This document shows, in pieces, positions 1,268-19,324 of a stretch of DNA of 29,562 bases. Source of the stretch: Nanobdellota archaeon (GTDB lineage: Archaea > Nanobdellota > Nanobdellia > Pacearchaeales > UBA12030); the NCBI GenBank assembly GCA_022572525.1, contig JACZVS010000001.1:1-29562 (forward strand). The letters run 5' to 3'. A program made the position numbers and the translations under genes. Position 1 is the first letter of the stretch. The number at the start of each line of letters is the position of its first letter. The notes under the pieces are model-generated. The model was given only the letters and a program-made list of their open reading frames with translations, ran no database searches and was not told the origin of the DNA.

Positions 1268-1377
1268 GCCTCGGTAGCTCAGTGGTAGAGCGCACGGCTG
1301 TTATGCCCTTTTGGAAAAAGCTCAACCAAAAGTAAGCAGAGACCGTGAAGTCGGCAGTTCGAGTCTGCCCCGGGGCG
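1268..1377 (+). tRNA. tRNA-Asn(GTT) with 38-nt intron at 37/38 (intron 1304-1341)
   Basis: Acceptor GCCTCGG/CCGGGGC, D arm GCTC/GAGC, anticodon stem CACGG/CCGTG, T arm GGCAG-TTCGAGT-CTGCC; central BHB helix CTGT/GCAG with 3-nt bulges TA|T and AG|A; no encoded CCA. Confidence 0.95.
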
Positions 1378-5202: not shown

Positions 5203-5314
5203 TGCGCTAACCGGGAGTCGAACCCGGATATTCAGCTTTTTCCTTTCCTTCTTTGTGGAGCTTCTTAAGAAGGCCCTTGGGAAGCTGACATCTTAGCCAT
5301 TGGATTATTAGCGC
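5203..5314 (-). tRNA. tRNA-Gly(CCC) with 40-nt intron at 37/38 (intron 5238-5277)
   Basis: Reverse strand: acceptor GCGCTAA/TTAGCGC, anticodon stem TCAGC/GCTGA, loop TT-CCC-A|intron|A, T arm CCGGG-TTCGACT-CCCGG; BHB central helix TTCC/GGAA; no encoded CCA. Confidence 0.93.
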
Positions 5315-10539: not shown

Positions 10540-10612
10540 TGGGCCCACTCGGATTCGAACCGAGGATCTTCTCGGTGTAAACGAGATGTCATAACCACTA
10601 GACCATGGGCCC
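10540..10612 (-). tRNA. tRNA-Val(TAC)
   Basis: Reverse strand GGGCCCA...TCTCG-TTTACAC-CGAGA...CTCGG-TTCGAAT-CCGAG-TGGGCCC-A; no encoded CCA. Confidence 0.96.
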
Positions 10613-10705: not shown

Positions 10706-12520
10706 ATGGAATCTGAAGATAGAGAAAATACGTTAGCTAAGAATTTGCATGAAGTCAGTAAGCGCAAGGAATCCACTCCTAGAGAAATTTCTCCCGAGTT
10801 GAAGAAAGAGCTTGCAAAGATTAAAGAAAAAATAGAGAAATTTAGTAAAGAGGTTGTTAAGAAATTCCCTTACATTATCTCAATTGGACTGCTCCCTACT
10901 CTTCCACCAATGCATCCTAAGCAAGGTTCTCCTGTTCAAGCTCCTTCCCCAAAAGATAAAGAAAAGGAGAAGCGAAAACCAGAAGTCATCATTGTCTTTC
11001 CAGACGATAAGTTAAAGGAAGTCAAGAAGCTTGAGAAGGATGTCGCTGAAATTGTGAAGAAACAGAATCTTGCCATCAATTTTTTCACTAGATCTCCTAA
11101 AGAATTATGGCAAACTTGTTTTGATGGCCACTTTGCCGAGATGGAAAGGATAAGCATGGCGTATCCTCTTCATGATAAAGGGGTTTTATCTGCGTTAAGG
11201 GTTGCCACAATCCATAAAAATCTTGTTCTCAGGAAGTTTGAGAAGTATGTCACCTCTTATGTAATTGCTGGGAGTCTTGTCAGAGGACAGGCAACGAAGA
11301 CAAGTGATATTGATATTTATGTTGTCATAGATGATACAGATGTTAAGAGGATGCCTCGGTTTGAGCTTAAAGAAAGGCTTAGGGCTATGATCTATAGTTA
11401 TGCTTTTGAAGCAAACGAAATTGCAGCTGCAAAGAATAAACTTTCTCCCCAAGTTTATATCCTTACTGAATTTTGGGATTCTGTGAAGGATGCGAATCCC
11501 GTAATTTTCACTTTCATCCGGGATGGAGTGCCTCTCTATGATAGGGGAGCATTTATGCCATGGAAGCGTCTTTTGCAAATGGGGAAGATAAAACCCTCTC
11601 CAGAAGCTATTGATAATTTTATGTTGTTAGGAGAGAAGCTAGGTAAGAGAGTAAAGGCAGATTTACTTAGAATTGCCACAGAAGACATTTACTGGGGAAT
11701 CATTACTCCAAGTCAGGCAGCTTTAATGCTTTATGGATTGCCTCCTCCAACCCCTATTGAAACAATTGACTTAATGGAGAAAACTTTTGTTGATAAAGAG
11801 AAGCTGCTCGAGAAGAAATACATAAAAATATTGGAGAGAGTTGTTGGTCTTTATAAGGATTATGAACATGGTAAACTGAAAGAGGTTAAGGGAAAAGACA
11901 TTGATGAGTTGCTCGTAGATGCCTCCTCTTATATTAAAAGACTTAAAGTCCTAGTTAAACAAATAGAAAAGCAAGCAGGAGAAAAAACCACTCTTCAACT
12001 GTATGATGATGCTTTCTCAATTCTCAGAAAAATTCTTGGAAACGGGTCAGAACAAATAATTGTTGAAAAATTTTATAAGGAAATAGTTAACAAAGGAGAG
12101 ATGCCTCCAAAAAGCTTGGTAGTTCTAAGAGAGATTATTAAGGCAAAACAAGACTATAAGAAAGGAAAGTTGAGCAAGCAAGAGATTGATAGGGTAAGAA
12201 GAGATGGTCAAGAGTTTATCTTTGCGATTACAGAATATGAACAGAGAAAGAATCTCATACTTACAGAGAAAGCAAGGTTTAAAGTAAAGATATCTGGAAA
12301 GCTAGCAGATCTCTATATTTTTGACGATGCGTATCTTATTTCTGGAGAAAAGAAGAAGGAAGTTTTGAGAGTCAATTTGAAAAAGAAGAAGTTAGAGGCA
12401 TCTAATCTTGATGAGGTGGCAGAAAAGCTTAAGAATGTTCCAAAGCAGATTGAAGTTACTCCTGAAAAGATTAATGAGATAAGAAAAATTATAGGTAAAG
12501 AGATAACGTTTCTCTTTTGA
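10706..12520 (+). CDS. Pol-beta superfamily nucleotidyltransferase with degenerate N-terminal NTase copy, HEPN-like bundle and helical C-terminus
   Basis: IAGSLVRG-x5-SDIDIYVVIDD; LYW..SxAAL..G HEPN-like helix (IYWGIITPSQAALMLYG). Confidence 0.8.
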   Translation: MESEDRENTLAKNLHEVSKRKESTPREISPELKKELAKIKEKIEKFSKEVVKKFPYIISIGLLPTLPPMHPKQGSPVQAPSPKDKEKEKRKPEVIIVFPDDKLKEVKKLEKDVAEIVKKQNLAINFFTRSPKELWQTCFDGHFAEMERISMAYPLHDKGVLSALRVATIHKNLVLRKFEKYVTSYVIAGSLVRGQATKTSDIDIYVVIDDTDVKRMPRFELKERLRAMIYSYAFEANEIAAAKNKLSPQVYILTEFWDSVKDANPVIFTFIRDGVPLYDRGAFMPWKRLLQMGKIKPSPEAIDNFMLLGEKLGKRVKADLLRIATEDIYWGIITPSQAALMLYGLPPPTPIETIDLMEKTFVDKEKLLEKKYIKILERVVGLYKDYEHGKLKEVKGKDIDELLVDASSYIKRLKVLVKQIEKQAGEKTTLQLYDDAFSILRKILGNGSEQIIVEKFYKEIVNKGEMPPKSLVVLREIIKAKQDYKKGKLSKQEIDRVRRDGQEFIFAITEYEQRKNLILTEKARFKVKISGKLADLYIFDDAYLISGEKKKEVLRVNLKKKKLEASNLDEVAEKLKNVPKQIEVTPEKINEIRKIIGKEITFLF

Positions 12521-12522
12521 AA

Positions 12523-12780
12523 ATGGAAGGAATAGTTGTAAGTTTTAGGCGGGGTAGGCATAGGTATAAGCCACGGCAGTTTATTATTAAAGCTGACGGA
12601 GTAGAAAAGAAGGCAGATGCTGAAAAGCTTATAGGCAAGGCAGTTATTTGGAAAAGTCCTGCTGGCAAAGAAATTAAAGGTAAGCTGACCGTTTTGCATG
12701 GTAGTAAGGGCTTGTTGCGCGCTTTGTTCGAGAAAGGCTTGCCTGGCCAAGCTGTTACTGAAAAGGTTGAGATAAAATAA
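12523..12780 (+). CDS. rpl35ae: 50S ribosomal protein L35Ae (eL33)
   Basis: SFRRGRH, LIGKAVIWKSP, HGSKGLLRALF, LPGQA. Confidence 0.95.
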   Translation: MEGIVVSFRRGRHRYKPRQFIIKADGVEKKADAEKLIGKAVIWKSPAGKEIKGKLTVLHGSKGLLRALFEKGLPGQAVTEKVEIK

Positions 12781-12794
12781 AAAGTAAAAGGAAA

Positions 12795-13136
12795 ATGAGT
12801 AGTCTTTTTGAAAAGAAATGCATTCCATGTAGGGGAGGAACTCCCCACCTAGTGTTAGAGCAAATTCAACAATATCTTTCCCAAGTAGAAGGATGGAATC
12901 TGGAAGAACAAGAAGGCCACCATCAAATTATTAAAGAGCATAAATTTAGAGACTTTAAAGAAGCGCTAACCTTTGTCAATAAGGTTGGAGAAATTGCTGA
13001 GCAGGAAGGCCACCACCCCAATATTTACTTATACAGCTACAACAAAGTTAGGCTAACTCTTTACACTCATGCTATAGGTGGGTTACATGAGAATGATTTT
13101 ATTTTTGCAGCTAAAGTCGATGCACTTTCTAAATAG
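12795..13136 (+). CDS. phhB: Pterin-4-alpha-carbinolamine dehydratase family protein
   Basis: CIPC N-terminus, FRDFKEAL.FVN, AEQEGHHP, LYTHAIGGLHENDFIFAAK. Confidence 0.92.
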   Translation: MSSLFEKKCIPCRGGTPHLVLEQIQQYLSQVEGWNLEEQEGHHQIIKEHKFRDFKEALTFVNKVGEIAEQEGHHPNIYLYSYNKVRLTLYTHAIGGLHENDFIFAAKVDALSK

Positions 13137-17419: not shown

Positions 17420-19324
17420 TTACTCTGCAGGCTGCCCTGTAAATGTTTGTCTTCTCTCTCCAGGCATTTCTCCTCCTAATTCTGATGGAAGAGCCGAGAA
17501 TGATGGAGAGCCATAAGTTCTGAAGTGGAAGTCAGGAAGGAATTCTCCATAGCCTTGGAAGTATGATCCATAAGTTCCTCTTATTTGGTTCCAATAAGGT
17601 TGTGACATCATTGTATAAAGTGGACTTCCTAAAGCTTCTAACACATATGGGTGTGGATTTGTCTTGAAGTGCTGGACAAAGCCGGAAGCTTCTACAATCT
17701 GCGGAGCTTTGATTCCTTTTTGTTCAAGAACTGCAAGTGCTTCCTTATAAGGAATATTTCCCATGCCGGGAGGTAGGTGAGAGTCTGCAAAGCCAAAGTT
17801 ATCTGTAAGATGAACTTTCTTTATGTACTCGGCAACTTTTTTTGTTTCTTCTGTAACAAACTTCTCTGGAAAGCCGTGTCGCCTTAACATGTTGATATGG
17901 CCGTAATCCCAAGTTACTCCGATAAGTTTCTCGGCAGCATTTCGCGCAGCTGCTTCTGCCATGCCTTGTTCTTTTGCTTTTTCAACAAATCTTTTCCTTG
18001 CAGCATTTATTACTTTTACAGAATCCTCTCCGGTTGACATTACAGTCTCAGGATAATTTTCTAGGGCAATAACAGGAGCTTTACTCCCAAACTTTTTCCA
18101 AACTTTTAGGGCCGCAGCAGCTGTAGTTTCAGCAACCTTCTCTGTTCCAAATTCATCTGCCGGTTTCCATTTTTCTGGAGGTGGTAGTTGCATTATTTTG
18201 TTATTCAACTCCTGTATTAATTTGTCTGAGTAAACATTGTTCTTGATATTGTCCATTTCTGGACCAACAATCTCTTTCACACTTTCCTGAAGATGTTTGG
18301 TATAATCTTTTTGTCCGTGTTTCATGAAGTCATTATACATATTTCTTAATGACATGTATTGATGGAAATTTGTTTCTTTAAGCGGCCATTCAATTTGCTG
18401 CAGTCTAGTGATTTTTTCTGCAGCCTCTTTTTCATCTGGCAAGAGGGCATGGCCAAATCTGCCTTTCCTCTCTATCTCGCGAATCTTCTGCTCTGGAATA
18501 TTTTTTATACTTTCTTTCAACATTCCATATTCCTCTGCTGGAATCATTCGTGCAAGTCTTGCCTTTTCCTCTTCAAGTCTAGCAATTCCAAACCTTTCAT
18601 TTTCCCATTCAGTTAAGTTAAGGGAATCAATCCTGCTTTTAGGATCAAATTCAATTATTCCTTCAGGCCATATTTGCCTTTCATATCTAACTTCTCTTAT
18701 CTGCCCAGTATCTGGATTAACTGCAAGTATGCTTTCCTGCATTCTCTCATTCTTCAAATCTGAGATCCGATCTCTTTCGCTTTCATGAAGTTTTCTTTTT
18801 GCCTCTTCTGCTCTGCCTTGAATGTTTTGTATCATCTCATCAGCTTCTTTCTTTGGAACATGAACCCATTTCTGTAAAGGCAGAGGAGGACCTGCGTGGA
18901 ATGTTACAGGAATATTTCCTTCTGGATCTAATTCATGGGCCTTCTCAAGTGCATCAACAACTTGGGCTTCTGCCATCTTCCTTAGCCTGTTATCCCATCC
19001 TTGTTGAGAGAAGCCGGCAAGATCAATTATAGGACCATGCATGGTCATTTTTGTACCTGTGACTTCTGCCAATCTTTTCATCTCCTTAAAGTGTTGTTTA
19101 GGAATTGCCTCAAAAACATCTTGCTGAATTGCTCCAACTTCAACTATCTTCATGCCCGTGTTCAAGAGACGAGAAGCCTGCCTTATCTGATCGGCTGTCA
19201 TTGGAGATGTCGGAGCTCCAATATCTGCATGAGCCATTCTATGGCCAGTAAAATATTCTCCGAATTCAGGCTCAAATGGAGTGTGGCTTCCTACATAAAA
19301 ATTCTCATAAGCAGCTTCTTCCAT
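17420..19324 (-). CDS. Xylose-isomerase-like / AP-endonuclease-2 TIM-barrel metalloprotein with large insertion
   Basis: TMHGP, TFHAG, ALENY, WDYGH, VHLTDN, DSHLPPG.G, IVE motifs. Confidence 0.8.
   Translation of the reverse strand: MEEAAYENFYVGSHTPFEPEFGEYFTGHRMAHADIGAPTSPMTADQIRQASRLLNTGMKIVEVGAIQQDVFEAIPKQHFKEMKRLAEVTGTKMTMHGPIIDLAGFSQQGWDNRLRKMAEAQVVDALEKAHELDPEGNIPVTFHAGPPLPLQKWVHVPKKEADEMIQNIQGRAEEAKRKLHESERDRISDLKNERMQESILAVNPDTGQIREVRYERQIWPEGIIEFDPKSRIDSLNLTEWENERFGIARLEEEKARLARMIPAEEYGMLKESIKNIPEQKIREIERKGRFGHALLPDEKEAAEKITRLQQIEWPLKETNFHQYMSLRNMYNDFMKHGQKDYTKHLQESVKEIVGPEMDNIKNNVYSDKLIQELNNKIMQLPPPEKWKPADEFGTEKVAETTAAAALKVWKKFGSKAPVIALENYPETVMSTGEDSVKVINAARKRFVEKAKEQGMAEAAARNAAEKLIGVTWDYGHINMLRRHGFPEKFVTEETKKVAEYIKKVHLTDNFGFADSHLPPGMGNIPYKEALAVLEQKGIKAPQIVEASGFVQHFKTNPHPYVLEALGSPLYTMMSQPYWNQIRGTYGSYFQGYGEFLPDFHFRTYGSPSFSALPSELGGEMPGERRQTFTGQPAE

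Follow-up and report, generated by a model that had tools for sequence, protein, structure and literature searches.

The window analysed here is a stretch of 29,562 nucleotides of low-GC archaeal DNA from a Nanobdellota archaeon (contig JACZVS010000001.1). Our study concerns one of its genes, whose product, P0001, carries nucleotidyltransferase (NTase) and HEPN domains and is an orthologue of NEQ050 from N. equitans. The gene lies between a divergently oriented tRNA gene and rpl35ae, the gene for ribosomal protein eL33 (Table 1). An earlier reading of the sequence alone (the sequence-only reading) had placed the P0001 stop codon two nucleotides before rpl35ae, and this spacing was confirmed: a TGA at 12518-12520 is followed by 'aa' and then by the rpl35ae ATG at 12523. 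An alternative rpl35ae start, the TTG at 12517, would overlap the P0001 stop. Further downstream are a pterin-4a-carbinolamine dehydratase gene and rpl10e. We consider it on balance probable that P0001 is a domesticated, predicted nucleotidyltransferase derived from a type VII toxin-antitoxin (TA) module, encoded by a core gene of Nanoarchaeota-type DPANN archaea.

Table 1. Features of the P0001 locus and related features, in window coordinates (aa, amino acid residues of P0001 unless a protein length is given).
Feature	Residues or length	Position	Strand	Evidence or remark
P0001 gene (MNT'-MNT-HEPN-HEPN'-C), NEQ050 orthologue	604 aa	10706..12520	+	open reading frame (ORF) call
MNT', degenerate NTase copy (GS to PT, DxD to KxE)	aa 30-158	10793..11179	+	hhalign; 1ylq Z 7.8 over aa 40-155
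Pro/Lys-rich insert, in the hairpin expected to hold GS...DxD	aa 64-92	10895..10981	+	predicted disordered
Intact pol-beta-type NTase	aa 159-295	11180..11590	+	PF01909, PF18765; MNT and ANT structures Z 9-12
GS motif of second NTase	aa 189-190	11270-11275	+	
DID motif of second NTase	aa 201-203	11306-11314	+	
DDTDV motif of second NTase	aa 209-213	11330-11344	+	
Q249 of second NTase	aa 249	11450-11452	+	
Conserved KPSPEA linker and HEPN domain	aa 296-445	11591..12040	+	2hsb Z 11.4; hidden Markov model match to AF0298
HEPN motif YKDYEH	Y383...H388	11852-11869	+	
HEPN', three-helix region, degenerate repeat of the second half of HEPN	aa 446-523	12041..12274	+	hhalign
Small beta-rich C-terminal domain, family-specific	aa 524-604 (81 aa)	12275..12517	+	model
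rpl35ae (eL33)	85 aa	12523..12780	+	Pfam 4.5e-17; NCBIfam 107.6 bits (cut-off 85)
tRNA-Val(TAC), divergent upstream neighbour		10540..10612	-	without encoded CCA
Single-copy MNT-HEPN paralogue	290 aa	16510..17382	-	35% identity to P0001 aa 182-421

Domain architecture of P0001

The structure of P0001 was modelled with AlphaFold2 from an alignment of 30 orthologues, with a mean predicted local distance difference test score (pLDDT) of 83.5 and a predicted template modelling score (pTM) of 0.53. In the model, a disordered tail (residues 1-29) precedes the folded domains. The first NTase domain, MNT', is a degenerate copy of the second; hhalign aligned the two with a probability of 98% and an E-value of 2.4e-13 (5e-11 with 121 orthologues). 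The GS motif of the second copy pairs with P64-T65 of MNT' and the DxD motif with K91-x-E93, and MNT' is therefore catalytically dead. The Pro/Lys-rich insert between these positions has a pLDDT below 50 at residues 68-89, and its length varies across the orthologue alignment. Both copies still have an LW block and a P-[LI]-[YH]-D-[KR]-G block in common. The second copy contains the only region of P0001 recognized by Pfam, a pol-beta-type NTase core at residues 176-228 that scores 28.5 bits for PF01909 (cut-off 21) and 27.3 bits for PF18765 and carries the hG[GS]-x9-13-DxD signature of PF01909. The sequence-only reading had described a tandem-duplicated NTase with a Pro-rich insert replacing the GS/DxD loop in the first copy and with both motifs intact in the second, and our analysis agrees with it on all of these points.

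The sequence-only reading had also described a HEPN-like bundle with YKDYEH as its motif and had proposed structure prediction as a check. The model indeed shows a HEPN fold, in which residues 316-420 superpose on AF_0298 (PDB 2hsb) with a root-mean-square deviation of 2.8 over 102 aligned residues and 24% identity; the HEPN profile also matches AF0298 by sequence (E 7.8e-5). AF_0298, a member of UPF0332/PF05168, is the closest solved HEPN structure to that of P0001. It is a stand-alone protein of 126 aa and its motif is R-x4-Y, whereas that of P0001 is Y-x4-H. The following region, HEPN', aligns with HEPN over non-overlapping ranges (hhalign probability 92%, E 5.8e-7), with KQDYKKG in place of KDYEHG. 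Its structural matches are 3mfn and 1jog (Z 7.6-8.9). The C-terminal domain was also folded alone (pLDDT 86). Neither VIA-align (best Z 4.0) nor Foldseek (best E 0.89) found a fold match for this model in the PDB, and in the ESM Atlas it matched its own family only. The net charge of each P0001 domain gives no clear nucleic-acid-binding signal, and a PDB sequence search with the single P0001 protein returned marginal DrrA matches only.

The order of domains along the chain is thus MNT'-MNT-HEPN-HEPN'-C, which looks like a covalent version of a 2:2 MNT:HEPN assembly in which only one copy of each domain is still live. Structures of the MNT antitoxins and HEPN toxins from HEPN/MNT systems superpose on the model with Z scores of 8-9.4. 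The best superpositions of the NTase-HEPN core are on ANT(4'), AAD(9), AadA and LinB (VIA Z 8-12, Foldseek E ~1e-4), led by ANT(4') 6nlt with a VIA Z of 11.8 over 203 aligned residues. In ANT(4')/KNTase, AadA and LinB, as in P0001, the NTase domain is followed by a helical, HEPN-like lid. These being the top structural matches of the whole module, P0001 could be a small-molecule nucleotidyltransferase of the ANT/Lnu type, acting on a metabolite or on an antibiotic-like compound at the host interface. We regard this as improbable. P0001 has no sequence-level membership in these families, its score with the ANT models lying far below the cut-off (11.9 bits against 350 for NF028535, ANT(4')-II), and the Glu/Asp that serves the ANT enzymes as catalytic base and third acid on the third strand is a Gln. 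The size of P0001 and its extra domains, the ribosomal gene context and the universal conservation are all unlike those of resistance genes.

Family membership and distribution

A 540-aa ORF of N. equitans matches residues 41-598 of P0001 (E 4.4e-37, 29% identity), and an exact sequence look-up identified it as NEQ050 (Q74N62). NEQ050 represents cluster cls.004259 in Table 1 of Makarova, Wolf and Koonin (2019; PMC6393860). That paper's account of the cluster describes an MNT domain fused to HEPN, present in 36 of 67 DPANN genomes, 'typically in house-keeping context' and of unusual conservation, and places it on a short list of priority targets. The P0001 family has therefore already been catalogued, as an uncharacterised core protein. 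P0001 is similar to NEQ050 over its full length, combines MNT and HEPN in one chain, is broadly conserved in the DPANN genomes sampled here, which are of the Nanoarchaeota type, and has housekeeping neighbours. It belongs to the same orthologous family as the members of cls.004259 and differs from them in nothing of kind.

The genomes and contigs that we sampled are of the Pace-, Woese- and Nanoarchaeota types. Among them, 40 of the 41 genomes of the same order have a full-length copy, as a rule a single one. Relatives were found in all 201 sampled genomes of the phylum, full-length in all but a few. Identity to P0001 declines with taxonomic distance: orthologues from the same taxonomic family share 65-76%, those from the order 41-56%, those from the class 38-48% and that of N. 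equitans 29%. Homologues are abundant: the word index gave more than 3700 matches, and among clusters at 50% identity 586 representatives matched, of which 156 have E below 1e-30. All homologues with a named source are labelled Pace-, Woese- or Nanoarchaeota, and their protein names are only 'nucleotidyltransferase domain-containing' or 'UPF0332 family'. A typical genome has one long copy and one paralogue of 270-300 aa. The paralogue in the window (Table 1) carries the motif HKILHG; it is near-universal in the group and better conserved than the long form (mean column identity 58%), and the two genes are 5-8 kb apart in many genomes.

The sequence-only reading had taken P0001 for a housekeeping gene rather than a mobile TA pair, and had named a patchy spread near defence islands as the observation that would speak against this. 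No such spread was seen: the gene is near-universal, syntenic within orders and vertically inherited, and no defence gene is among its neighbours. For the NEQ050 family, the housekeeping reading is already present in the description of the cluster by Makarova et al. (2019; PMC6393860). The same observations make it extremely unlikely that P0001 is an ordinary fused type VII TA or defence module, despite the HepT/MntA pair of domains, weak PADLOC matches to MNT models of ~100 aa (E 1e-6) and a score of 23.3 bits with the NCBIfam MntA model (cut-off 60). P0001 shares with type VII HepT/MntA an MNT domain with GS-x10-DxD beside a HEPN domain, and with the fused protein FhepTA also the single chain and the N-to-C order of the two domains. 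However, FhepTA is a protein of ~276 aa that is found on mobile elements, has Rx4H with an adjacent Tyr and is toxic when split. P0001 is a core-gene product of 604 aa with a Tyr at the Arg position, no Tyr past the His, dead extra copies of both domains, so that half of its domains are degenerate, and an extra C-terminal domain. In type VII systems, the AMPylation site is the Tyr beside the motif, Rx4HxY (PMC13000451). Neither the Rx4-6H motif nor this Tyr is present in P0001, and its distribution is not of the patchy, mobile kind. A search of the neighbours in the window with defence models matched none of them, P0001 itself weakly matching MNT models of ~100 aa only, and no mobile-element gene is among the neighbours.

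Some more distant relatives have a different organization. Six metagenomic proteins of 1083-1340 aa (P0178, P0183, P0184, P0190, P0194 and P0226) carry the NTase-HEPN core behind a long TPR region, in a conserved neighbourhood with a Metallophos phosphoesterase, several unknown proteins and PNP_UDP_1. They probably constitute a separate system, and these TPR-fused and other distant relatives were set aside as non-orthologous on account of this gene context. At six other loci (L088, L096, L106, L102, L104 and L105), the gene lies beside archaeal ribosomal protein genes, yet the contigs are labelled Patescibacteria, Paceibacterota, Dojkabacteria, Methanosarcinales or 'bacterium'. The bins of these contigs are likely mis-assigned.

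Conserved residues and gene neighbourhood

Residue conservation was assessed in an alignment of 121 full-length orthologues. Invariant residues are G189, S190, S200, D201, D203, D210, T211, W257, R272-D273-G274, D279, W286 and G293 in the second NTase and E300, Q337, G344 and E387 in the linker and HEPN domain; D212, Q249 and H388 are each present in 120. The mean identity to P0001 is 71% for the NTase, 56% for HEPN, 37% for HEPN', 31% for MNT' and 23% for the C-terminal domain. That the GS...DxD/DDTD site is invariant speaks for an active nucleotidyltransferase. The third acidic residue of pol-beta enzymes is absent: as the sequence-only reading had noted, the strand expected to carry it, which was placed by the secondary structure of the model and general knowledge of the fold rather than by residue-level superposition, reads LSPQVY, with Gln (Q249) at the position of the carboxylate.

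In the HEPN domain, E387-H388 and K384 (Lys in 115 orthologues, Arg in 6) sit on the helix in which HEPN RNases have their catalytic motif. Position 383, which alignment to AF0298 equates with the Arg of Rx4H, is Tyr in 79 orthologues, Arg in 31, Trp in 6 and Phe in 5. The HEPN motif of NEQ050 is RKEIEH. The second residue past H388, where type VII toxins have the modifiable Tyr, is K390 in P0001; it is Lys in 79 orthologues, Glu in 12 and Thr in 11, and in none of the 121 is it Tyr.

These data bear on the possibility that HEPN is the business end of the protein. P0001 would then be a housekeeping, self-regulated endoribonuclease for the processing or turnover of rRNA, tRNA or mRNA, with the NTase as a switch in cis, as in FhepTA. 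The retention of H388, the canonical Rx4H (RKxxEH) in NEQ050 and 31 of the 121 orthologues, the high conservation of HEPN and the translation-related genomic context are all in keeping with such a role, and the fused MNT-HEPN protein FhepTA can auto-AMPylate and gate its HEPN RNase (PMC13000451). However, the motif Arg is replaced by Tyr, Trp or Phe in P0001 and 90 of the 121 orthologues, and the modifiable Tyr past the His is absent. HEPN RNases require two motif-bearing domains, and HEPN' lacks the E-H pair. The best-conserved part of the protein is the NTase, not HEPN. Because the motif Arg has become Tyr, canonical HEPN RNase activity is unlikely in the clade of the window; for the family as a whole we think an RNase function doubtful, and more plausible in the RKxxEH clades than for P0001.

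The identity of residue 383 follows the gene neighbourhood. In all 12 close loci of the same order, rpl35ae is the next gene on the same strand, usually followed by rpl10e. The coupling to this ribosomal protein gene in the sequence-only reading therefore holds among close relatives, but overall the linkage was found at only 52 of 118 evaluable loci, confined to one clade and absent from the sister orders. It therefore amounts to operon synteny of one clade rather than to a functional link across the family. Downstream of the orthologues of the sister orders there is mostly a gene for a CBS-pair protein of 180 aa with a zinc-ribbon-like C-terminal tail. The 30 Arg-383 orthologues with a locus have the CBS gene nearby in 21 cases and rpl35ae in none, and the orthologues with an aromatic residue at position 383 are the rpl35ae-linked ones. 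The CBS-pair protein may be a regulatory partner of the RKxxEH orthologues. Other downstream neighbours are genes for a UPF0020-type RNA methyltransferase, L11 and UPP synthase, and PEP synthase follows rpl10e at some loci. The N. equitans locus is uninformative on context, its gene order being scrambled.

Several observations at these loci are recorded here in their own right. The CBS-pair gene was seen at L031:876-1418 (-) and 23 other loci (cluster c3), and its C-terminal tail is DUF7573-like. Its position beside the orthologues recalls the nucleotidyltransferases of bacteria in which CBS and DUF294 are fused; 6 of 30 orthologues have a weak DUF294 match. An ORF of ~200 aa that matches sigma-70 regions 2 (E 2.5e-13) and 4 immediately precedes the orthologue at L119 (3320-3913, +), L072, L077 and L090; the contigs are labelled archaeal, and such proteins are unexpected for archaea. 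In the window, the pterin-4a-carbinolamine dehydratase gene (12795-13136, +) stands between rpl35ae and rpl10e. This gene was found in just 4 of 121 related loci, and in a reduced genome it is an odd gene to separate two ribosomal protein genes. A 634-aa protein at 17420-19324 (-) has an AP_endonuc_2 TIM-barrel match at residues 369-547 only, its N-terminal ~360 residues being unannotated.

The tRNA genes of the window raise a further possibility. Rfam identified four and ARAGORN two; the other two, Rfam matches of ~110 nucleotides at 1268-1377 (+) and 5203-5314 (-), are probably intron-containing tRNA genes. According to the sequence-only reading, none of the four encodes CCA, and tRNA-end chemistry is one option for P0001. 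The first statement is correct for tRNA-Val, the only one of the four that was checked. The second is not supported in the sense of P0001 filling a gap in CCA addition. The genome encodes a class I CCA enzyme of the canonical type, a 433-aa ORF (G000:C18) that matches PF09249 with 111.8 bits, as do 98 of 101 genomes of the class, and P0001 is therefore no substitute for it. A broader action of P0001 on tRNA 3' ends, whether CCA addition, repair or tagging, could be supposed from tRNA-Val being its upstream neighbour and lacking an encoded CCA, and from the tRNA-type methyltransferase gene that lies between the orthologue and rpl35ae in several relatives. HEPN/MNT systems reportedly touch tRNA acceptor ends, a finding attributed to Songailiene et al. 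in 2020. Against this stand the CCA enzyme itself, the lack of any match to its neck domain, tRNA_NucTransf2 (PF09249), in the Pfam scan of P0001, and the C-terminal domain, for which no RNA-binding fold was recognized in the PDB, Foldseek or ESM Atlas searches. We judge an action on tRNA ends to be very unlikely.

Proposed function and its significance

The architecture with its duplications, the conserved residues, the distribution over genomes and the gene context are observations; from them we infer a catalytic activity, a nucleotide, a role of the HEPN cleft and an acceptor for P0001 as follows. The ancestor would have been a HEPN/MNT module, similar to type VII TA systems, that came to be inherited vertically. 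Both of its domains were duplicated and fused to give MNT'-MNT-HEPN-HEPN', and a C-terminal domain specific to the family was added. MNT' and HEPN' would then have decayed to a scaffold, leaving a mimic of the 2:2 MNT:HEPN complex with a single active centre. The predicted activity is a Mg-dependent nucleotidyl transfer, probably of AMP from ATP, at the GS...DxD/DDTD site. The HEPN cleft, with K384, E387 and H388, may serve as an acceptor-binding or co-catalytic lid. We propose such a composite site because, by analogy, the helical domain of KNTase and MntA-HepT binds the acceptor or is itself the acceptor; ANT(4') provides a similar precedent for the lid. The acceptor may be P0001 itself or a cellular macromolecule.

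Four points weigh against this proposal. The Tyr that is AMPylated in type VII systems, two residues past the His, is absent, and self-AMPylation at the known site therefore cannot apply. With a practically invariant Gln at the expected position of the third carboxylate, the active site is non-canonical, and it could be slow, altered or regulatory; this Gln is explained neither by a domesticated nucleotidyltransferase nor by any of the alternatives. The retention of H388, together with the full RKxxEH in a quarter of the orthologues, also fits an RNase. Finally, with a pTM of only 0.53, the model gives no firm placement of the NTase and HEPN sites relative to each other.

A more elaborate scenario is that Nanoarchaeota-type symbionts have domesticated an addiction module into a core ATP-sensing switch. 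When host-derived ATP is available, the live NTase would keep the HEPN cleft or a component of translation nucleotidylated. A fall in ATP would lead to loss of the mark, and RNA or translation would be shut down. In the RKxxEH clades this might occur through the HEPN RNase, possibly tuned by the adjacent CBS-domain protein as a sensor of adenosine ligands; in the rpl35ae-linked clade, the route would be non-nucleolytic. We offer this switch as a speculation that is itself rather improbable.

A domesticated nucleotidyltransferase of TA origin thus remains our preferred reading of P0001, and the window presents no new kind of system. Relative to the description of cls.004259 in Table 1 and the cluster's account in PMC6393860, the present analysis adds the duplication of both domains, one of the two copies being dead in each case, and the Gln in the position of the third carboxylate. 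It also adds the loss of the motif Arg in the rpl35ae-linked clade, the extra C-terminal domain and the second, short and near-universal paralogue. These details define constructs and mutants, with live and dead copies of each domain and a Gln in place of the third carboxylate. The clade-specific loss of the HEPN Arg tracks a switch of neighbour, from the CBS gene to rpl35ae. NEQ050-type proteins are among the very few that are restricted to DPANN and, across much of DPANN, almost universally present. The substrate of this family would show how a toxin-antitoxin module turns into a core cellular function, and might reveal a step of regulation or modification that is peculiar to ultra-small symbiotic archaea.

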